A stretch of DNA of 64,000 bases from Bdellovibrionales bacterium (GCA_020435005.1 JAGRAE010000001.1:609-64608); one strand, 5' to 3'; shown: positions 44,210-56,275, numbered from the stretch's first letter. Notes: generated from the letters alone by a model not told the origin. Numbers and translations are program-made.

Positions 44210-46039
44210 TCATTTTAAACATGAGTAAATCAGTTTGAAAAAGGATTCTTGAAACTCACTAGGAGACTGGATAATATCATAATGACTAAACATATCGGAA
44301 AAATAAGTACGTTTCTTTTTATCCAAAACAATTGCCACAAATTCGACCCCTTGACTCTCCGCCTCAATACGTGCCTTTCTGACATCATAAATTCCGTGAT
44401 GTCCTTCGTAATAATCAAGATCAGTTGGTTTACCATCTGTAATCAATAAAAGTATTTTCTTTTTTGCTGATTTTGCAACAAGCTCATTTTTGACATGTCT
44501 AATGGCTGGCCCTAACCTTGTATAGCCCTGAGGGTCAACACTAGCTATCTTTTCTTTATAAAAAGTCCAATTATCACTAAAACTCTTATACACTATTAAA
44601 TTGCAATTTCTACGTGTTACGCTAAAAGTTCCAGCGACCATTATCTGATGACAAAATTTTTCTAGCAATTCCGATAAACTTAAAAGTCCAAAACGGATGG
44701 CTTCAATTATATGTTCATTTTCAATCCATGAATCAGTTGACAATGACTGATCAAACAATACTGATAAAGCAAAATAGTTATGTCTTTTTCGTTTTTCGCT
44801 GAAAATTTTTTGATTGGGAGTATGGCCACTTCTAAAATCAGTAAATGATGTACACCATTTATCAATATCTATCTCAGTTCCCTCAAGTAATCCTTTTCTC
44901 CATTTCGGCTGATTGAAAATCTGAGTTATTTTCTTTTTCCATTTATTGTTTCGCTGCCTTTCAATTAAGTTAGTATTAATTATCTTAGTTCCTTTATGTT
45001 CTGCAGAAGACACATATAAAGCACAGTACTCCTTTAAATACCTTTGGTGTTTATCATCCCATTCTGGATAAGTAAATTGACCACTTACTTTTCTATGTTG
45101 TGCATAACTTGTGGCAAATGATAAAATAATATCGGATTTATATACTGACTGGCTTGTTTCGCCATCGACTGTAATATGACCCATTTCAATTTCATTCATT
45201 GCTGAATTATGTTTTTGGAGCTCGTCATCCCCATCATTATGCCTTCCACTTTTCTCAAACTCATCCACAGTTTCCATTTTTTCAAAGGAGTGAATAACAG
45301 GATTGGCACTTTCCTTATCCAAAGATACCTTCTTGACTGGCTTATTATAGCCACTTTGTTGCTCACTATTTTTTCGATCAACTCTTGGTACTGACGAGGA
45401 TGAATTTACATCCAAATTTTCTGAAGTATTAGGAAGAAAAATTGGAACAGAAAATAATAGATAGGTTGGCAAAGTATCATTTCTTTTTTGTTTATTCCTT
45501 AATTTTTCAATTTGACAAATATTTTCATCAGTTGGCTCTTTTATTGAATCTACTCTTTGATCCCACAAAACAAAAAAATCATCTTGCTTTCTAAATTTAG
45601 AGAGTCTAAATTCTTCTAAAATAGTAGATTCAAAATATCGAAAGGTCGGGAACTCCTGGTTCAACCATAGATTAATCATATGCATATTTTTGAGAGTGGC
45701 TAAAACTCCAGCTCTTTTTGATTTCTCCTCTCGCCAATCTTCCTTTTTGATTGCAAATAACCCCAACGCCTTGAGCGCCATATAAAAGTAAACTCTTTTG
45801 TTTAAATACCTATCATTAAAAATATTAACCCGATCTGGCATAAAAACATCTCTGTTCCAAACTGCAAAAGTTTTTAAACTCGGATGTAAAGTCAACTTTG
45901 AACTTTTTGGTAATGAATAAGAAAAAACTGTATTAAGATAATTTTCAATAAGGTTTAATTGACAACAAGAAAGATCAGATAATTCTTTCTCTCTTTTTGT
46001 TTTCCATATTTTTTTAAAAACACCCTCTAAAAAATCCAT
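44210..46039 (-). CDS. norD: Nitric oxide reductase activation protein NorD (C-terminal von Willebrand A domain)
   Basis: C-terminal VWA with KKILLLITDGKPTDLDYYEG...DVRKARIEAESQGVEFVAIVLD. Position directly after norQ. Confidence 0.8.
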   Translation of the reverse strand: MDFLEGVFKKIWKTKREKELSDLSCCQLNLIENYLNTVFSYSLPKSSKLTLHPSLKTFAVWNRDVFMPDRVNIFNDRYLNKRVYFYMALKALGLFAIKKEDWREEKSKRAGVLATLKNMHMINLWLNQEFPTFRYFESTILEEFRLSKFRKQDDFFVLWDQRVDSIKEPTDENICQIEKLRNKQKRNDTLPTYLLFSVPIFLPNTSENLDVNSSSSVPRVDRKNSEQQSGYNKPVKKVSLDKESANPVIHSFEKMETVDEFEKSGRHNDGDDELQKHNSAMNEIEMGHITVDGETSQSVYKSDIILSFATSYAQHRKVSGQFTYPEWDDKHQRYLKEYCALYVSSAEHKGTKIINTNLIERQRNNKWKKKITQIFNQPKWRKGLLEGTEIDIDKWCTSFTDFRSGHTPNQKIFSEKRKRHNYFALSVLFDQSLSTDSWIENEHIIEAIRFGLLSLSELLEKFCHQIMVAGTFSVTRRNCNLIVYKSFSDNWTFYKEKIASVDPQGYTRLGPAIRHVKNELVAKSAKKKILLLITDGKPTDLDYYEGHHGIYDVRKARIEAESQGVEFVAIVLDKKKRTYFSDMFSHYDIIQSPSEFQESFFKLIYSCLK

Positions 46040-46041
46040 AC

Positions 46042-46842
46042 TTAAAGACTAATATCAATAATGTCTATTAGTGCCGATACCACTTGTCTTTCATCTGTTA
46101 ATGTCTCTGCAATGGCAACGTGGGCTGCCTCCCTCACATTAATCCCAGATTTTATTAGGCAGCCAGCATGTATTAGAATACGAGTAGAAACTGTAGCCTT
46201 TAAATCGAAATTTTCACTTCTCCGAATTCTATTTGCTAAACGAGATAGAGCTTGCGCTTTTGAGAACTCTACTCCTGAGATATTCTGAATAAGCTCTGCC
46301 TCTCTTTTCTCATCAATATAATCCATTGATAAAGTTACAAATCTCTGACGAGTAGAAGGCTTCATCTCTTTGAGGCCGGACTGATATCCAGGATTAAAAC
46401 TTGCTACTACCATAAAATTATTTGAAGCTTTAACAACTTCATTAATTTTGTCTAAGTATATTTCTCTTCGGTGATCCGTGAGAGGGTGAATAGCAACAAT
46501 AACATCTTCTCGAGCTTCAGCTATCTCGTCAAAATACAAAATTGCGTCTGAACGAATGGCCCTAATTACAGGACCGTCTTGCCAGATTGTATCTCCTCCT
46601 TTGATTATAAATCTTCCAAGTAAATCAGTAGCATTTGTATCTTCGTTGCATGCTATTTTCACAAGAGGCTTTCCAAGCTTATAAGACATAAACTCAACAA
46701 ACTGTGATTTACCACAACCTGTTGGACCTTTTAATAGTAAGGGTAATTGGTTCTCATAACAGCTATTAAAAATTTCTTCTTCATTTTTATTAACTAAATA
46801 AAAGAGATCAGTAACAACCTCATTATCGTTATTCCACTTCAT
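46042..46842 (-). CDS. norQ: CbbQ/NirQ/NorQ-family AAA+ ATPase
   Basis: Walker A LKGPTGCGKSQ, Walker B ILYFDEIAEA; 266 aa. Overlaps the norB end by 14 nt. Confidence 0.9.
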   Translation of the reverse strand: MKWNNDNEVVTDLFYLVNKNEEEIFNSCYENQLPLLLKGPTGCGKSQFVEFMSYKLGKPLVKIACNEDTNATDLLGRFIIKGGDTIWQDGPVIRAIRSDAILYFDEIAEAREDVIVAIHPLTDHRREIYLDKINEVVKASNNFMVVASFNPGYQSGLKEMKPSTRQRFVTLSMDYIDEKREAELIQNISGVEFSKAQALSRLANRIRRSENFDLKATVSTRILIHAGCLIKSGINVREAAHVAIAETLTDERQVVSALIDIIDISL

Positions 46843-48163
46843 TCAATCTCCCTACAGGAGAACCAAAACGTACAAAGTTATAAACAAATGCAACTATTCC
46901 CATGGTAAATAAACTGGCTGCAAGTACCAGACCGAAAAAGTGGATTTCAATTTCTTTTTGCACGTGTAAGAAATCTAGGCCCATTTTTCTCTCCAAATAA
47001 ACTTGTGCAATTCCAGCTATACCAAAGGCTACAGTCATAGAAACCATACCAATATTTGATGTCCAAAACGCAAAAATATTTATGCTACTATCTTGTAGCT
47101 TTCTACCTGTTAACAAAGGCATACTATAAGTAATAATGGCAAGAATTAAGCAAGCGTAGGCCCCCCAGAACGCAAGATGTCCATGCATTGCAGTCACAAG
47201 AGTTCCATGTGTATACATATTCACCTGTGGAAGAGTATGAGCAAAACCTAAAAGTCCTGCACCTACAAAAGACATAATAGCTGTGCCTAGAGTCCATAAT
47301 AAAGCCGTTTTATTTGTTGGATTTTTACCACCCTTTTTAGCCATGGCAATAGCATAGATAGCCATCCCAAAAAATGCGATTGGTTCAAGGGCACTAAATA
47401 TTCCGCCAATCATCAACCAGTACTTTGGTGTACCTATATAATAATAATGATGACCCGTCCCTAAGATACCACTTAAAAATGTAAAACCAACAATAATGTA
47501 CAACCACTTTTCAATGATTTCTCTGTCAACACCTGTTAATTTAATTAATAGGAAAGACATTATTGCACCCATAATAAGCTCCCATACGCCCTCCACCCAT
47601 AAATGAACAACCCACCAACGCCAATATGAGTCGTGAGTTTGATGATCAGTTTCAATCATTCCAGGTAAATACAACAAGGCAGCAGTTAAAAGTCCAAAAA
47701 ACAAAACTATGCTTGTGGTTGTATAACGTTTTCCTTTCCAAATAGTTCCGCCAATAAGACCAATAAATAATAACACGTCAACAACAACTAAGTAATCAAG
47801 AGGACGAGGGATTTCTAAGAATTTTCGCCCCTCCCACCACTGAAAGTGAAACCCAATTATTGCTGTAACGCCAACAACTACGAAAGCTATTAATTGAATG
47901 TAAGCCCATCTGACCGAGATAATTTCCCTGTCGGCTTCTTCGGGTACTATATAATAAGCTGCCCCCATAAAGCCCGAAAGCAGCCACATAACTAAAAGAT
48001 TCGTATGAGTAGATCTCGCAACATTAAAAGGTATTAGTTCATGAAGTCCGTCATATCCCATATGAGCAAAACCCAATATGAATCCATATACCAACTGCAA
48101 ACTAAAAAGTAACATACATACTGCAAAAAACCAATAAGCCACTCTTTGTGATGAGTATTTCAT
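46829..48163 (-). CDS. norB: Nitric oxide reductase large subunit NorB (cNOR type)
   Basis: Twelve-TM haem-copper-oxidase-like protein with His ligand motifs: RSTHTNLLVMW, VVHLWVEGVWE, GTGHHYYY, AMHGHLAFWGAY. 444 aa. Confidence 0.9.
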   Translation of the reverse strand: MKYSSQRVAYWFFAVCMLLFSLQLVYGFILGFAHMGYDGLHELIPFNVARSTHTNLLVMWLLSGFMGAAYYIVPEEADREIISVRWAYIQLIAFVVVGVTAIIGFHFQWWEGRKFLEIPRPLDYLVVVDVLLFIGLIGGTIWKGKRYTTTSIVLFFGLLTAALLYLPGMIETDHQTHDSYWRWWVVHLWVEGVWELIMGAIMSFLLIKLTGVDREIIEKWLYIIVGFTFLSGILGTGHHYYYIGTPKYWLMIGGIFSALEPIAFFGMAIYAIAMAKKGGKNPTNKTALLWTLGTAIMSFVGAGLLGFAHTLPQVNMYTHGTLVTAMHGHLAFWGAYACLILAIITYSMPLLTGRKLQDSSINIFAFWTSNIGMVSMTVAFGIAGIAQVYLERKMGLDFLHVQKEIEIHFFGLVLAASLFTMGIVAFVYNFVRFGSPVGRLNEVE

Positions 48164-48882
48164 TTCTCACCCCCTTTTAATTTAGAAAGAAATGCTGCTA
48201 ATTCGATAATATCTTCTTCGGACAGTGGTAGTTTAGGCATCGCTGAATTTGACTTAATCTGCATAGGGTCCTTTAACCACTTCGTAAGATAAATGATATC
48301 TCTTGTAGATCCAATACTGTCTAAGGCGGGGCCAACTTGCCCGCCTTGACCGCCAAGACTGTGACAGGCAACACACATTTGATTAAATACGGTTGGACGA
48401 TTTTTACTGTTTACAATTGTATCTTCCATGGTTGTGCTGCCAATTGCTGTAGGCGATGCACTTTTTACCAGATCAGGTTCAGGAGGAAAACCATTGAGGT
48501 CCAAAGTCCCAATCCATCTAAGAAATGCTGTTAAATCATTAATCTCTTGTTCATTAAAATTATACTTAGTCATTTTCCTTTGACCGGGGTACATTGATTG
48601 TGGGGCCTTAAGTATTTCTTTTATAAAAACTTCTCCTCTACGCTCAAAAACTTTTGTAAGTTCTGGGGCATAATAGGCACCTTCACCGAGTATTGTATGA
48701 CAGCCCATGCAATTACTCTTATCAAAAAGGTGCTTGCCTCGAACAACATCTAAGGTCATTTCTTTTTGATTTGTTTGCTCTGGTATTCTTTGAAATGTAT
48801 CTATGGTTAATCCTATAAAAATAAGTGAAAAGGCCGTAGTACCAACTACAAAGAAGGCCTTTGCTTGTGATTTTGAAAGCAT
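48160..48882 (-). CDS. norC: Nitric oxide reductase cytochrome c subunit NorC fused to a second C-terminal class I cytochrome c domain
   Basis: The N-terminal TM anchor and VVRGKHLFDKSNCMGCHTILGEGAYYAPEL match canonical NorC. A second haem motif CVACH (Cys170/173/His174) with SAMPKL follows beyond about residue 135. Confidence 0.85.
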   Translation of the reverse strand: MLSKSQAKAFFVVGTTAFSLIFIGLTIDTFQRIPEQTNQKEMTLDVVRGKHLFDKSNCMGCHTILGEGAYYAPELTKVFERRGEVFIKEILKAPQSMYPGQRKMTKYNFNEQEINDLTAFLRWIGTLDLNGFPPEPDLVKSASPTAIGSTTMEDTIVNSKNRPTVFNQMCVACHSLGGQGGQVGPALDSIGSTRDIIYLTKWLKDPMQIKSNSAMPKLPLSEEDIIELAAFLSKLKGGEK

Positions 48883-48935
48883 CCCATCTCCCTTTTGCTA
48901 TTTTTCTTAGCATAATGCTGTTTTAGCAACGCGAG

Positions 48936-48950
48936 TATGATCTAAATCAC
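48936..48950. promoter_or_regulatory. FNR/Dnr-type dyad (TGAT-N4-ATCA) in the divergent norC / 49042 promoter region
   Basis: tATGATCTAAATCAC lies about 55 nt upstream of the norC start. It is identical, as reverse complement, to 55091-55105 upstream of nirS. Confidence 0.6.
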
Positions 48951-49041
48951 CTCTTTCAGAAAATACTTCTTCCTCACTTTCATTTACATAGATATTTTAA
49001 GATTAATTTGTAAGAGGCACCTAGACAAAAAACTAAACAAC

Positions 49042-50427
49042 ATGAGAGGAGTAAAAGTGCCAAAGTTTTATTTATTGATTTATACCTTTTTTTTTACATT
49101 AGCAGGATTCGCACAAAATGGTAAAAACATTCAATTAAACGAATCTTCTGGTAGGATAAATCTTGCGGCTGAAAAACTAAAATTGTTTAAAGAACAAGAA
49201 TCTTTCAAAATTGAATACTCCTGTGAAAAACAAAAAATTTATCAAGAGAGTCAGAGCCTCCTACTTGGAAGCTCTCAAGAATGCAAACAAGAAATAATAT
49301 ACTTACTTCAAAGAAAACATAGAGAATTACTAACATTATCTTTTCTTCAGACCAATGCCCATCGGGACACCAACATTTATGATCAGTTTGGCCTTTCCAA
49401 GAGAGCTACTAAGACTGTTGCCAGAGCAAGAGTCTTACCTTGGCTCAAACTGACAGCTATGCATTTTACAGATGAAAATCTTCAAAAAGATCCTTACAGG
49501 CTCATCTCTGGATACATGAATATTTCAAACCAAACTGATTTTCCAATAGAAATTAACTATGGATACGAAGAGGATAGCAAATCGAAATTAAATATATTGT
49601 ACGGCAAAAAAAACTTTGGGATCTTAAAGGACTCTACAAGTTTATCATTATATGTGGGTGGTCTCATCCTAGATCAAAAATTTCGTAAAAATATCGAGAG
49701 AGAGGATAACCGCTATTTCAGTGCTTTGCAATTCAACTTTAACCAAATAGATCAGTCAATTATTTTGGGTGGTGGCAAAGAAGATAATGGACCTCACTCT
49801 TACTTGTTTGGTCTACACGGTTCAGTGCTCGGTAATGTCGCTAATGAGTGGATGAGCCTTTGTCGAGTAAAAAAAAATCGAAATTCAAAAGGAAGCCCAC
49901 TTAAAACACGATTTTGTATACTTTCAGTATCTATAGAAAATAAAAACTTAAAAAGGGGACGTTATACTGATTTTTTAGGAGTATTTACGCCCGGCATGAT
50001 CAAACCAACTCGAATTGTAAACGGAAGCACACTCAATGAAAACCCGACTTCAGCAACGACCAGATCATATCTGGATCGCCCCCTTTGGGAACTCACGGCT
50101 TCGACCACCGAAGTTGAAGTTTCTGAAAATGAAAATCTGTACTTAAGTTTAGTCGGTATAAACCGAAGTTTTAAAAGTGATGTTTTGTTTGCACGACATC
50201 CATTTTTTGGAATATCGCTTGAAATTAATAACCACATTTACTTTGATAGAAAAAGTTTTAAAGTTAAAGCTGATGATAATAAAAAAGTCTTAAATACAAA
50301 CTTTGGATTTGGATTAGGTAGTGGGAAAGGTGATAATTCCTGGGCTTTAGGGGCCTCTATTGGTTTTGATATTAAAAATGCAGACCCCATTCTTCAATTT
50401 GTACTATCAAAAAGATTTGGTGATTAA
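49042..50427 (+). CDS. Hypothetical secreted / outer-membrane protein
   Basis: Signal peptide ...LLIYTFFFTLAGFAQ. 461 aa, rich in beta-strand-like alternating segments and Gly/Asn turns. No recognised motif. Divergent from norC. Confidence 0.5.
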   Translation: MRGVKVPKFYLLIYTFFFTLAGFAQNGKNIQLNESSGRINLAAEKLKLFKEQESFKIEYSCEKQKIYQESQSLLLGSSQECKQEIIYLLQRKHRELLTLSFLQTNAHRDTNIYDQFGLSKRATKTVARARVLPWLKLTAMHFTDENLQKDPYRLISGYMNISNQTDFPIEINYGYEEDSKSKLNILYGKKNFGILKDSTSLSLYVGGLILDQKFRKNIEREDNRYFSALQFNFNQIDQSIILGGGKEDNGPHSYLFGLHGSVLGNVANEWMSLCRVKKNRNSKGSPLKTRFCILSVSIENKNLKRGRYTDFLGVFTPGMIKPTRIVNGSTLNENPTSATTRSYLDRPLWELTASTTEVEVSENENLYLSLVGINRSFKSDVLFARHPFFGISLEINNHIYFDRKSFKVKADDNKKVLNTNFGFGLGSGKGDNSWALGASIGFDIKNADPILQFVLSKRFGD

Positions 50428-50442
50428 AGTTAATATAATAAC

Positions 50443-50919
50443 CTACCAAAAAATAATTTTTAGAACATTGGTCGACTCTTTAATTGGTTCTAAAAAAGGT
50501 ACTCCATAGAAACTCAGAGTCGGTAAAACTTTATCAAGTAGTTTTAAACTGTCGACACAACCCTCTCCACCAAAGTATAGAGTTACATTTCTAATTCCTT
50601 GCAGATCGGATGGACTGTGCAAAACGCCCCCAAAGCCCTCAAGTCGACAATCGTATAGATCTGGAAAGTCAACATAGGCAGTGTAAGATCTACCCAACCA
50701 AAAACCCGTTTGATGCCATTGGGGATCATAGTTTATCCATTCTACTTGATACTCAACCTTATAGATTTTTGTATCGGGAAAATAAATAATTTCCCTTAGC
50801 TGATCACCACTTGAGTTTCTAGCAATACTCAGTTGTGCTTCGACAAAGTCAACATTAGCAAAAATCTGACTGGTCCATAACAATGTTGATAACACACCTA
50901 AAATTTTAAAAATTTTCAT
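50443..50919 (-). CDS. Hypothetical small secreted protein
   Basis: Signal peptide MKIFKILGVLSTLLWTSQIFA; 158 aa. Last gene of the apparent nirS-regulator-porin transcription unit, with a 32-nt gap to the porin gene. Confidence 0.5.
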   Translation of the reverse strand: MKIFKILGVLSTLLWTSQIFANVDFVEAQLSIARNSSGDQLREIIYFPDTKIYKVEYQVEWINYDPQWHQTGFWLGRSYTAYVDFPDLYDCRLEGFGGVLHSPSDLQGIRNVTLYFGGEGCVDSLKLLDKVLPTLSFYGVPFLEPIKESTNVLKIIFW

Positions 50920-50951: not shown

Positions 50952-52193
50952 CTAAAAATAACTTCCGGCTTGGAAATAATAAAACTGCATTTGCTTACTG
51001 CCAGAATTATCTTTGAGATATTCTTCAGGCCATACCTGTGATACACCTATTTCAAAGGTCAATTCTTCTGAAAACAAATAACTTAATACTAAATCAATTT
51101 CATTGGCAATAGCAGATTGTATGCCCGAAGTACCATAGGGTGCTCCAGAAAAATTGTAAGATGGGGCGTTGTTACTAGTCCTTTCAAATTGATGGTGATC
51201 TAATGAAATCTTAAATGAGTCAGTGACTTTGCCAGAAAAACCAACACGAAAGCCCTTAATATTTTTACGTGAAAAAAGATCTGCATATCCTAACCATTTA
51301 TGACCAGTGGGAAAAAGTTGATCATAATTTTCACTTGCAGAGAAATATTCAATAGAAAGGCGATGCCTTCCAAAAAATCTATAACCCAGCTCTACATCCA
51401 CTTGCAGTTCATCTTCATCAGATCCCGCTACCTTAACTTTCTCAAAGGTTGCCTCAAGACGATAATCCCAATCAAATATAGGTGATTTAAATCGAAAACC
51501 GTAGGCAGTAGTATTGTTTCCCAACATATCGGAGGCATCATTTTTACGTAAAGCATATATATCAAACTCTTTTATCTCATCAGAAATCTGAAAACTAGAA
51601 TAAATACCAATTAGTGATTTATCACCAGCTCCCGCCTTACTAACATTATTATCCCTCAAGGTGGAATACATAATTTCTAACGAACCTAAATCCCATTTTT
51701 GATGAAATTGAATCAAATCAAAAGATCGGCCTTGATTACTCCACCCTACACCACCCAAAAGTAGTTGGTCTCCATAATTAAGCTCTTTACGTCCAGCGGT
51801 AAAAGCAAAATTATCATTAAAGTTATATTTTAGATAGGCTTGGTGCACATCAAGACTTGTATCATTTAGGACGCCGCTAGTTTCTTTTTCAGTAGAAGAT
51901 GAGGTGCCGTTAGGTACAAATTCTGTTTGCCCCCAAATTTTAGTAAATTGAGGTTGAAAAAACACAATCGTCTTTTCACTCTGCTTAAAACTCATATCTA
52001 ATCGAAAACGCGATCCTGTAAAATCAGTATAGTCACTAACGTTTTTATTAAAATCTGAATTATTTCGAACCTCAACACGGGCACGAGCTGAACCTTTTAT
52101 TTGAAAATTACTGGATTCTGCTTTTGCAAAGTTAAATAAAATACAACTAGAAAGTACAATAATCGAGATAATACTTTTTCTTAAATGATGCAT
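50952..52193 (-). CDS. Outer-membrane porin, alginate-export (AlgE-like) family by pattern
   Basis: Signal peptide, then GSARARVEVRNN, LDVHQAYLKY, GRKELNYGDQLLLGGVGWSNQGRSFD, and a C-terminal ...FQAGSYF. Family assignment is from memory of PF13372-like motifs. Confidence 0.5.
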   Translation of the reverse strand: MHHLRKSIISIIVLSSCILFNFAKAESSNFQIKGSARARVEVRNNSDFNKNVSDYTDFTGSRFRLDMSFKQSEKTIVFFQPQFTKIWGQTEFVPNGTSSSTEKETSGVLNDTSLDVHQAYLKYNFNDNFAFTAGRKELNYGDQLLLGGVGWSNQGRSFDLIQFHQKWDLGSLEIMYSTLRDNNVSKAGAGDKSLIGIYSSFQISDEIKEFDIYALRKNDASDMLGNNTTAYGFRFKSPIFDWDYRLEATFEKVKVAGSDEDELQVDVELGYRFFGRHRLSIEYFSASENYDQLFPTGHKWLGYADLFSRKNIKGFRVGFSGKVTDSFKISLDHHQFERTSNNAPSYNFSGAPYGTSGIQSAIANEIDLVLSYLFSEELTFEIGVSQVWPEEYLKDNSGSKQMQFYYFQAGSYF

Positions 52194-52217: not shown

Positions 52218-52940
52218 TTAAATTTCAGCTCCCATAAATTCGATTAATTTAGAAGATTTTAAAATTGTTATTTGCTTATCATTTGTCACGACATACCCTT
52301 TCTTAGACCAGTCACTCATAATTCTAATTATTGACTCTACAGAAGCCCCCACAGTATCGGCTATTTCCTTCCGGGTTAAAGGGATTGGAATCGTTTGTTG
52401 ACTATTTGTAGATTGGAGTTCTGCAAGTTCAATTAACAGATTGGCCATTTTTGCTTGTAGTGAAGACTTATTTAATACTTTCTGTTGCTGCAGGGACACC
52501 ATTCTATTTGACAGTAAATTCTGTATTCTAAATACCAAAGTAGGATTATCTTTCCAGCAAGAATAATTTGCTTTAGGAATTTTTAAAGCCCTTGATGGAC
52601 CCATAGAAATAGCAGATATGGGATAAAGTGGATTTCTTTGTGTCAAAATAAGGGCTCCCAATACGTCGCCAGGGCCTGAAAAATGAATAATCGCATCATC
52701 ACCTTGTAAAGTTTGCCTCACCAATTTAAAAGCTCCACTCAATATGACGAAAAAGAAATCGGCTTTACTGCCAGCTTTGAACAATACTTTTCTATGATCA
52801 TTAACTATAACTTTACCACCTTGACACAAGCTTTTTACTTCTAACTCTGAAAATTCAGAGAATAATTTTAAAGCACAAAGCTCTGGCAACACGCCATATT
52901 GCATAAGTTCAGAATTCATACATTCACAATTAACACTCAA
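52218..52940 (-). CDS. CRP/FNR-family transcriptional regulator (Dnr/NnrR/FNR class unresolved)
   Basis: cNMP-binding-like beta-roll and C-terminal HTH LTRKEIADTVGASVESIIRIMSDW, aligning with FNR VETISR and CRP RETVGR (Glu and Arg conserved). TTG start at 52940, or ATG at 52919. Confidence 0.85.
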   Translation of the reverse strand: MSVNCECMNSELMQYGVLPELCALKLFSEFSELEVKSLCQGGKVIVNDHRKVLFKAGSKADFFFVILSGAFKLVRQTLQGDDAIIHFSGPGDVLGALILTQRNPLYPISAISMGPSRALKIPKANYSCWKDNPTLVFRIQNLLSNRMVSLQQQKVLNKSSLQAKMANLLIELAELQSTNSQQTIPIPLTRKEIADTVGASVESIIRIMSDWSKKGYVVTNDKQITILKSSKLIEFMGAEI

Positions 52941-55159: not shown

Positions 55160-56275
55160 CTAATAGCTCTTAAAACAATTATTAAAAGTTAATCTTAAAT
55201 GCTTATCCAACCATATAACCATAGAGATAGCAAATAAAACTACTGAGCTCCAAAAAATAGTTCCGTCAATAGAATATGTACTATTCCACCTTAATACTGC
55301 CCCCAATAGCAAAAGAAAACAAATCAAAGCAATTCTTTTAGAATTTAATTCGTAATCTAAATTACTTTGACTATGTGCGAGAGTTACTCTAGTTGCAACC
55401 ATTATTGTTAGTAATGTAAATCCACCTATATACACTAAGTGAGAGCTCGACACAAATTGGGAGGTGACTACTCTTAAGCCATGCCCTAATAATGTAAATA
55501 CTATGGCCATTTTCAAACCTAATCCTAGCCAACCAAAGACAATCCCTCTTTTAAAAAGTCCAAAGTCCACAACTCCTATGTAAGACAATATTATTAACCT
55601 CAAGACATTTGCCATAGTCAATAGACCAAGATATTCAACGAAGAAACTTAGATTTAAAAAAAACACTTTTAGAGATATTGCTTTATAGTTAAAACTAAGC
55701 ACTGTACCATGACTCATAAATAAATTGGGCAACCTTGAAAGCGCAGGCACCAGTCTACTACCTAATCCAATGATTAGATTTAGTATAAATCCCTCCCCTG
55801 CAAATAGAAAAAGTGTCTTGTAGTCCTTATAAAAGATAAAGTTAATTAATCCAAAAATGGCCAAAAAAAATGCTGCCGGCAAAAAAAGAAAACCGGCAAA
55901 AGGTAGCTTTCTTTTTTTTTGAAAACGGGATAAAATAAAAAATAATAAAAATATCAATTGTATAAAATAAAAGAAAACAGCTAGATCAGTTCTATTAAAA
56001 AAATTCAAAATAAACTGAACTAAAACAAGTGAGCTTGCCAACCAGACTTCTAAACTACAGGTCAACCGAGAGTCTGTCATATGAGGAATAGCCGTCATTA
56101 AAAATCCGGCTACAAAGCTCCAGAAAAACGCAAAGAACATAATCTGGATATGAGCCCTTCGAGGATAAAATGCAATCAATCCTACATCAAAAAACAACCA
56201 AATTAAAACCCCCATCAAACCAAACAATACACCCAAAATGAATAATGGTTTGTATGGATTTTTTACTGCATACAT
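55160..56275 (-). CDS. nnrS: NnrS-family membrane protein (NO-response haem/copper protein family)
   Basis: About 12 TM helices. AHIQIMFFAFFWSFVAGFLMTAIPHMT matches the NnrS pattern H...GF...GFLLTA. Adjacent to nirS. Confidence 0.75.
   Translation of the reverse strand: MYAVKNPYKPLFILGVLFGLMGVLIWLFFDVGLIAFYPRRAHIQIMFFAFFWSFVAGFLMTAIPHMTDSRLTCSLEVWLASSLVLVQFILNFFNRTDLAVFFYFIQLIFLLFFILSRFQKKRKLPFAGFLFLPAAFFLAIFGLINFIFYKDYKTLFLFAGEGFILNLIIGLGSRLVPALSRLPNLFMSHGTVLSFNYKAISLKVFFLNLSFFVEYLGLLTMANVLRLIILSYIGVVDFGLFKRGIVFGWLGLGLKMAIVFTLLGHGLRVVTSQFVSSSHLVYIGGFTLLTIMVATRVTLAHSQSNLDYELNSKRIALICFLLLLGAVLRWNSTYSIDGTIFWSSVVLFAISMVIWLDKHLRLTFNNCFKSY

Follow-up and report, generated by a model that had tools for sequence, protein, structure and literature searches.

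The cytochrome c-dependent nitric oxide (NO) reductase (cNOR) operon in a 64,000-nucleotide stretch of a Bdellovibrionales genome (GCA_020435005.1 JAGRAE010000001.1:609-64608; hereafter the window) encodes a NorC subunit that carries a second, tethered class I cytochrome c domain. The textbook cNOR is a heterodimer of NorB and a mono-haem NorC and is fed by soluble cytochrome c or (pseudo)azurin. The NorC protein of the window is not a mono-haem protein of about 150 amino acids. It is 240 amino acids long, contains two CxxCH motifs and matches two Pfam cytochrome c domains.

The first part of the protein looks like any other NorC. Residues 3-135 align with residues 6-143 of the 146-residue NorC of Pseudomonas aeruginosa (3o0r_C, E 3.7e-31), and a search of the PDB also aligns Roseobacter NorC (4xyd_B) with the N-terminal part. 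As in other cNOR enzymes, there is a single N-terminal transmembrane anchor, in which K4 and K8 precede the hydrophobic stretch FFVVGTTAFSLIFIGLTI, followed by a periplasmic haem c domain. The latter contains CMGCH (residues 58-62, positions 48697-48711), EGAYYAPEL (67-75, as part of GEGAYYAPEL) and Met104 (48571-48573); Pfam places PF00034 at residues 47-123 (80 bits for the whole protein, cut-off 21.3). Since canonical NorC is complete by about residue 135, the last ~105 residues are additional. The initial annotation had set the 240 residues against about 150 in canonical NorC, and the alignment with NorC from structurally characterised cNOR indeed ends at about residue 135. The interval proposed for the extension, 48160-48480, comprises the stop codon and residues 135-240.

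What follows is a hinge region, marked by GFPPEPDLV at residues 131-139, and then the second domain. Here we find CVACH (170-174, positions 48361-48375), GPALD (184-188), SAMPKL (212-217), Met215, whose codon can be read in the DNA at 48238-48240, and the C-terminal end LAAFLSKLKGGEK. All of the motifs on which the initial annotation had based an extra C-terminal class I cytochrome c domain are thus present at the residues it gave. PF13442 matches residues 165-232 with 49.8 bits (cut-off 27). Sequence and predicted structure together give the domain the CxxCH motif, the distal Met and the helical fold expected of a class I cytochrome c. Only cytochrome c families match NorC in Pfam; there is no match to a COX2 or cupredoxin domain. 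The C-terminal domain reaches no curated NCBIfam cut-off, and hence we regard it as a generic small class I cytochrome c. Table 1 lists the parts of NorC and the genes of the surrounding cluster.

Table 1. Two-haem NorC, its parts and the genes of the denitrification cluster (positions counted from the first letter of the window).
Feature	Position	Strand	Basis or remark
norC, two-haem form, 240 amino acids	48160..48882	-	stop codon 48160-48162
N-terminal membrane anchor helix, NorC residues 1-37	48772..48882	-	AlphaFold2 and alignment with 3o0r_C anchor
canonical NorC haem c domain, residues 38-133	48484..48771	-	Pfam, PDB alignment, Foldseek
flexible linker, residues 134-162, Ala/Pro/Ser/Thr-rich	48397..48483	-	low pLDDT, variable length
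second class I cytochrome c domain, residues 163-240	48163..48396	-	Pfam, profile search, AlphaFold2, Foldseek
norB, 444 amino acids, cNOR catalytic subunit	46829..48163	-	E 9.6e-113 to P. aeruginosa 3o0r_B
norQ, MoxR-type AAA+ ATPase (AAA_5 + CbbQ_C)	46042..46842	-	Pfam
norD, VWA-domain partner of NorQ	44210..46039	-	Pfam
Crp/Fnr-family regulator (Dnr/NnrR-like), upstream of cluster	52218..52940	-	Pfam
nirS, 657 amino acids	53018..54991	-	Pfam
nnrS, haem/copper membrane protein linked to NO stress	55160..56275	-	Pfam

Constraint and predicted structure

The second haem site is as strictly conserved as the first. In 76 diverse homologues, with identities down to 37%, the residues C58, C61, H62 and M104 of the first domain and C170, C173, H174 and M215 of the second are invariant. 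Because of this invariance the second CxxCH motif and its Met are more than a chance occurrence. Mean pairwise identity is 52% in the anchor, 57% in the N-terminal domain and 48% in the C-terminal domain, and falls to 25% in the linker, which spans 13 to 34 residues in the homologues. This pattern of identity and length fits two constrained domains on a flexible tether.

The predicted structure agrees with this division. An AlphaFold2 model built from the 76 sequences has a mean pLDDT (predicted local distance difference test) of 80.5; it replaces a weak earlier model from 22 close sequences (pLDDT 66.5). The anchor is modelled as a helix from residue 4 to 36 (pLDDT 91-98) and the linker at pLDDT 48-59. 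The initial annotation had allowed that the extra region might prove to have no haem-binding fold. Yet residues 161-240 are modelled at pLDDT 82-96, and their fold matches small c-type cytochromes. With Foldseek the first half of the protein finds 3o0r_C (target-normalised TM-score 0.74, 40% identity over 139 structure-aligned columns). The second half finds SorU, SoxX, the c domain of caa3 subunit II (33% identity over 88 columns) and c551/c552. A profile of the C-terminal domain gives a similar picture in the PDB: it matches the c domain of caa3 subunit II (2yev_B) with 48.5 bits and the NorC haem domain with 48.0 bits, as well as a cy-CcoP fusion, c552 and other class I cytochromes.

Tandem cytochromes c are also found in CcoP, but two-haem NorC is not a CcoP. 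The ccoP model TIGR00782 scores 29.6 bits against it, far under the cut-off of 179.95, and its neighbour is NorB and not CcoN, so there is no ccoNOQP operon.

Recurrence of the fusion across genomes

For related loci we scanned one genome per species with an alignment of the C-terminal domain from closer homologues. In this species-representative collection, 290 genome stretches encode a relative of the domain; all neighbourhood counts given here refer to the best 80 of these 290. Both domains and two CxxCH motifs lie within one open reading frame (ORF) at 77 of the 80 loci. The ORFs of the other three are split or truncated, one of them at the end of the locus (L055). NorB follows in 79 cases, NorQ is found in 73 and NorD in 67. 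According to the record titles, 46 loci belong to Bdellovibrionota, 11 to Myxococcota, 8 to Planctomycetota (one Brocadiaceae), 4 to Entotheonella/Tectimicrobiota, 2 to Binatia, 3 to 'Deltaproteobacteria' and 6 to other groups, including Leptospiraceae and Thermodesulfobacteriota. Four of the loci come from complete isolate genomes, namely Pseudobdellovibrio sp. HCB154 (L022), Bdellovibrio bacteriovorus Bd5 (L038) and two further Bdellovibrio spp. (L075 and L077). At the protein level, at least 120 clusters of 224-253 amino acids match the full two-domain length at 61-78% identity.

These observations bear on a trivial explanation, which the initial annotation had itself raised: assembly or gene calling could have joined norC to a downstream cytochrome gene. 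The window does belong to a metagenome-assembled genome, and this is the only point in favor of an artefact. However, the fusion recurs as a single ORF in independent genomes, hundreds of assemblies in all and complete isolate genomes among them, as well as in the protein clusters of 224-253 amino acids. In the window the reading frame is continuous without a stop, and the TGA of norC overlaps the ATG of norB as ATGA. With norB beginning at that stop codon, a separate cytochrome gene would have no space. An artefact is therefore extremely unlikely.

More distant relatives exist as well. A representative protein library contains further two-domain NorC proteins of 220-240 amino acids at 31-56% identity, and the NorC of Candidatus Azoamicus ciliaticola, a denitrifying ciliate endosymbiont, is a two-domain protein of 232 amino acids. 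A second, divergent cNOR clade has two-haem NorC proteins of 221-235 amino acids at 35-44% identity; its NorB is 41-47% identical to NorB of the window and retains the active-site motifs, and norQD is absent downstream. Two examples (L081:6001-9077 and L083:6001-8017) combine a NorC of 225-227 amino acids with a NorB of 440 amino acids and have neither norQ nor norD downstream. In the first of them a CopD/cytochrome-b5-like fusion protein is encoded after nor, and a molybdopterin oxidoreductase with a NarJ-like chaperone is found nearby.

The plasmid pTB101 of Aquabacterium olei encodes a NorC of 290 amino acids with a longer linker and CAACH as its second motif (L084:5001-5873). This two-haem norC is part of a norCBQD cluster beside norR and ytfE on a 366-kb plasmid typed as non-mobilizable. 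The context suggests that NO detoxification is the setting in which this betaproteobacterium uses its two-haem NorC. Matches on Rhizobium plasmids that covered 77% of the query were rejected: they are ordinary norC genes for proteins of 150 amino acids, and tblastn had read on into norB.

Origin of the extra domain

Where could the second domain have come from? Within the window its closest relative is the N-terminal haem domain of NorC itself (BLASTP, 41.6 bits, 30% identity), ahead of the two c domains of NirS (33.9 and 21.6 bits). A profile comparison of the two NorC domains gives an hhalign probability of 99.6%, both match the same generic NCBIfam models at similar scores, and the NorC haem domain ties for the best PDB match of the C-terminal domain. 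Judging from these comparisons, the second domain may have arisen by internal duplication of the NorC haem domain. All class I cytochromes c are homologous, and the c domain of caa3 subunit II scores just as well as the NorC haem domain.

One could go further and argue that such a tandem duplicate was kept for structure or stability, with little or no redox role. The same similarities would fit this idea. The invariant CxxCH and Met, however, argue for selection on haem binding and hence on a redox function, and we consider a purely structural role very unlikely.

The nor operon and its surroundings

Judged from its genes and motifs, norCBQD in the window is a genuine cNOR operon. NorB retains the cNOR active-site motifs HLWVEGVWE, GHHYY, FSALEP and HGH. 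A homologue of the Crp/Fnr-family regulator is present at 37 of the 80 related loci. No Fnr/Dnr box (TTGAT-N4-ATCAA, at most one mismatch) was found upstream of norC at 48883-49041. Between dnr and norC the window contains an ORF of 461 amino acids (49042-50427, plus strand) and one of 158 amino acids (50443-50919, minus strand), neither with a Pfam match, and a gene for a 413-amino-acid outer-membrane beta-barrel protein of the alginate-export family (50952-52193, minus strand). ORFs at 16-23 kb were considered as an alternative complex III, a possible direct electron donor, and rejected; they encode a glycine-cleavage P protein and unrelated or unknown proteins.

Neighbouring nitrite reductases and small cytochromes

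The NirS of the window also has an additional cytochrome c domain. An extra N-terminal cytochrome c (residues 33-106, PF00034) precedes the canonical c domain (154-227) and the d1 domain (264-652). The best NCBIfam match of this extra domain is the second half of the two-haem shuttle PdsA. The c-c-NirS arrangement has been reported as restricted to Chloroflexi (Schwartz et al. 2022, PMC8756737). We find the c-c-d1 architecture to be common: at least 115 clusters of 634-679 amino acids have it, with carriers in Bdellovibrionales, Gammaproteobacteria, Pseudomonadales and Schekmanbacteria. A few close NirS relatives of 570-574 amino acids are without the extra domain.

The initial annotation had paired the two fusions and concluded that both terminal enzymes bring their own electron-entry cytochrome. 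This is right for the window and does not generalize. NirS is found within 6 kb of two-haem norC at only one of the 80 loci. A survey of the co-occurrence with fused NirS instead turns up NirK with a fused C-terminal cytochrome c (NirK-c) as the usual neighbour, at 36 of the 80 loci within the same distance; 44 of the 80 have no Nir gene within 6 kb. The NirK-c loci (for example L022, L033, L036 and L040) span Bdellovibrionota, Planctomycetota and Myxococcota. At a further locus outside the 80 (L086:14762-16177) NirK-c is followed by an FGE-sulfatase-domain gene, which we take as NirV, and by SCO1/SenC and NnrS. The same 1.34-Mb contig also contains a gene for a reverse transcriptase (RVT_1, L086:4962-6410), at a distance of about 3.5 kb upstream of nor. 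The longest contig recorded for a cluster of fused NirS (P0394) has the same length, 1,342,771 bp, and both fused enzymes may therefore be encoded on this contig.

The closest relative of the window (L001, 78% NorC identity) has nnrS, dnr, norCBQD and NirK-c, and no NirS within 6 kb upstream of norC. This difference suggests that the lineage of the window gained nirS or swapped one Nir type for the other. Both nnrS and dnr occur near norCBQD at 10 of the 80 loci; in the window nirS sits between the two. As read from these neighbourhoods, it is a real theme in the two-haem NorC clade that the enzyme making NO and the enzyme consuming it each bear a tethered cytochrome.

Stand-alone cytochrome c genes are absent from the vicinity of most of the 80 loci. 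A contig of the Azoamicus family (GCA_964354875.1, L087:7555-12378) encodes a cytochrome c of 124 amino acids directly upstream of two-haem norC. The genes follow in the order small cytochrome c, norC, norB, an unfused nirK (332 amino acids), a NirV-like FGE-sulfatase-domain gene and SCO1/SenC; the other strand encodes norD and norQ. The genome of Ca. Azoamicus ciliaticola lists cytochromes c4 and c5 (Graf et al. 2021, PMC7969357).

A proposed tethered entry haem

The most reasonable role for the extra domain of NorC is electron entry or relay. By analogy, we think it rather likely that the domain works as a tethered haem that passes electrons into the NorC haem. NorC would be held in the membrane by its one N-terminal helix, with both cytochrome domains in the periplasm. 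The first haem c domain would pass electrons to haem b of NorB and from there to the haem b3/FeB site. The flexible linker of about 29 residues would tether the second small, His/Met-ligated domain, which would pick up electrons for the NorC haem. Its upstream donor could be a bc-type complex or alternative complex III, or else a cytochrome that is either mobile or anchored. In this way a cytochrome c would be kept permanently at the enzyme. The analysis itself shows the domain architecture, the conservation of the haem ligands, the predicted fold, the context in the operon and how widely the fusion recurs, whereas haem occupancy of the second site, the partners between which electrons move, the direction of their flow and a possible benefit are what we infer from it.

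This interpretation draws on topology (the anchor with its N-terminus inside, both domains in the periplasm), on the strict conservation of the His/Met ligands, on the flexible tether and on the close parallel to caa3 subunit II, CcoP and NirK with a tethered cytochrome. Electron entry or relay is also the task of the cytochrome c fused to caa3 subunit II and of the additional haem domains that CcoP contributes to cbb3 oxidases. The tethered cytochrome c of NirK is an established internal electron donor (RpNiR; PMC7201279, PMC6038957).

Several points weigh against a tethered entry haem. AlphaFold2 yields no confident inter-domain geometry (predicted TM-score 0.58), electron flow could run in reverse, and the Azoamicus-family contig keeps a separate small cytochrome c gene beside two-haem norC. 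With this gene present, it is not obvious that the fused domain takes the place of a mobile carrier.

If electrons did run in reverse, the second haem could be an exit or hub through which NorC distributes electrons to, or docks, NirK-c, NirS or NosZ. Nir genes do sit beside many two-haem norC genes: besides the NirK-c loci, nirK directly follows norB in the Azoamicus-family contig, and NirS is encoded about 4 kb away in the window. The third haem domain of CcoP in pathogenic Neisseria reportedly supplies the nitrite reductase AniA. For cNOR we know of no precedent in which electrons are routed via the NorC haem to another enzyme. The three-haem CcoP (PMC2924362) is nevertheless the model one would turn to for an exit. 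Most of the neighbouring NirK proteins, however, already own a tethered cytochrome c, and more than half of the loci have no Nir gene nearby that could be served. Hence, an exit or hub seems unlikely to us, and a tethered haem for electron entry remains our preferred interpretation.

Carrier independence and mobility

From the two fusions the initial annotation had derived a self-contained electron-transfer chain that does not depend on soluble cytochromes of the host, as expected for a horizontally mobile module. Neither independence from host carriers nor a mobile island emerges from our analysis. Independence of two-haem cNOR from host soluble cytochromes is not supported, and the Azoamicus group provides counter-examples. 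Moreover, the fused domain would still need an upstream donor, which weighs against carrier independence. As for an island, the guanine-cytosine content of the nor/nir region (0.32-0.37) lies within the range across the window (0.30-0.41). No tRNA genes were found in the 64 kb. Among the ORFs scanned, which are part of those in the window, island gene content was not found either; the flanks consist of ordinary housekeeping genes of the chromosome (MltA, GNAT, ribonucleotide reductase and glutamine synthetase). The window, then, shows no sign of a recent island. An older transfer of two-haem nor between phyla is plausible because NorB is 70-77% identical across phyla among the 80 loci and because of the study by Speth et al. 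(2024, PMC11549363).

A stronger version of the idea is a carrier-free nitrite-to-nitrous oxide (N2O) module that could be used in any host and that owes its architecture to horizontal mobility. Several observations are in line with it. The CxxCH motif occurs in only two ORFs of the window, NorC and NirS, and most of the 80 loci are without a stand-alone cytochrome c gene in their vicinity. The NorB identities suggest past transfers, horizontal acquisition of norB has been inferred in Azoamicaceae (Speth et al. 2024, PMC11549363), and one two-haem norC cluster is located on a plasmid. Yet that plasmid is typed as non-mobilizable, and the window shows no sign of an island in composition or gene content. 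The lack of a donor gene is uninformative, as canonical nor operons usually lack donor genes too. Ca. Azoamicus ciliaticola has c4 and c5 (PMC7969357), its relative has the small cytochrome c gene beside norC, and a quinol oxidising complex of the host would still be needed as a source of electrons. We consider such a module improbable.

We give an equally low probability to a physically coupled Nir-Nor assembly in which two-haem NorC and the cytochrome c-fused nitrite reductase encoded next to it (mostly NirK-c, in the window the c-c-d1 NirS) are wired by their tethered cytochromes. Its electrons would come directly from a quinol oxidising complex in the membrane, and no diffusible carrier would be involved. 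If it did exist, such hard wiring from nitrite to N2O would curb the leakage of NO, and the module could have spread among predatory bacteria, Planctomycetota, Myxococcota and Azoamicus endosymbionts.

Significance of two-haem NorC

cNOR is the main source of N2O in denitrification. If a large cross-phylum clade has a second haem built in, as the conserved ligands suggest, electron input into cNOR is not uniform. The second haem could affect donor specificity, kinetics at low NO concentrations and the coupling of Nir and Nor. Since two-haem NorC is found in cultured Bdellovibrio and in the energy-supplying endosymbiont Ca. Azoamicus, these effects are experimentally testable.

Cytochrome c fusions to respiratory enzymes are already familiar; two-haem NorC is a real and widespread case. 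A search of the available open-access papers and preprints turned up no account of a NorC that is extended or has two haems, which is not proof of absence. It is not described in Murali et al. (2024), Graf et al. (2021), Speth et al. (2024) or Schwartz et al. (2022); the survey of NO reductase diversity among these gives cNOR only 'a secondary cytochrome c subunit' (Murali et al. 2024, PMC11214002). In NCBI records two-haem NorC proteins, that of the window included, are named 'cytochrome c' or 'c-type cytochrome'. With such generic names, gene-based surveys of denitrification could miss norC in the genomes that carry it.

Comparison with known systems

Two-haem NorC shares with canonical NorC (3O0R chain C; Roseobacter denitrificans 4XYD chain B) the anchor, the haem c domain with CxxCH and Met, and the motif GEGAY(Y/F)APEL. 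The operon is also alike, with norC translationally coupled to norB and with norQ and norD downstream. Canonical NorC, however, ends at about residue 146 and has one haem, whereas the protein of the window adds a linker and a haem c domain of together about 100 residues.

CcoP, with two haems or with three in Neisseria, and the engineered cy-CcoP fusion 6XKX likewise present class I cytochromes c in tandem on a membrane anchor. In this case the tandem forms a separate third subunit beside the mono-haem CcoO, and it is CcoO that is the counterpart of NorC. The enzyme fed by CcoP belongs to the C family, which is the sister group of cNOR (PMC11214002).

Among denitrification enzymes, RpNiR-class NirK (PMC7201279, PMC6038957) has a tethered C-terminal cytochrome c as a built-in donor. 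Enzyme and fold are different from cNOR, and for RpNiR both structural and biochemical studies have addressed what the tether does. The C1-C2-NirS of Chloroflexi (PMC8756737) resembles two-haem NorC in that an extra cytochrome c has been added to a denitrification enzyme that already holds one; that study concerns NirS, and two-haem NorC is not described in it. Relatives of C1 occur in Nitrospirae ORFs that are annotated as NO reductase and have detectable similarity to norC (Schwartz et al. 2022, PMC8756737).

Subunit II of the caa3 oxidase (Thermus thermophilus 2YEV chain B) also carries a C-terminal class I cytochrome c on the membrane-anchored electron-entry subunit of an enzyme of the haem-copper superfamily, and the c domain of this subunit ranks among the top matches of the second NorC domain in both structure and sequence. 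In caa3 the fused domain follows a CuA cupredoxin and the substrate of the enzyme is O2; in two-haem NorC it follows another cytochrome c, and the substrate is NO.

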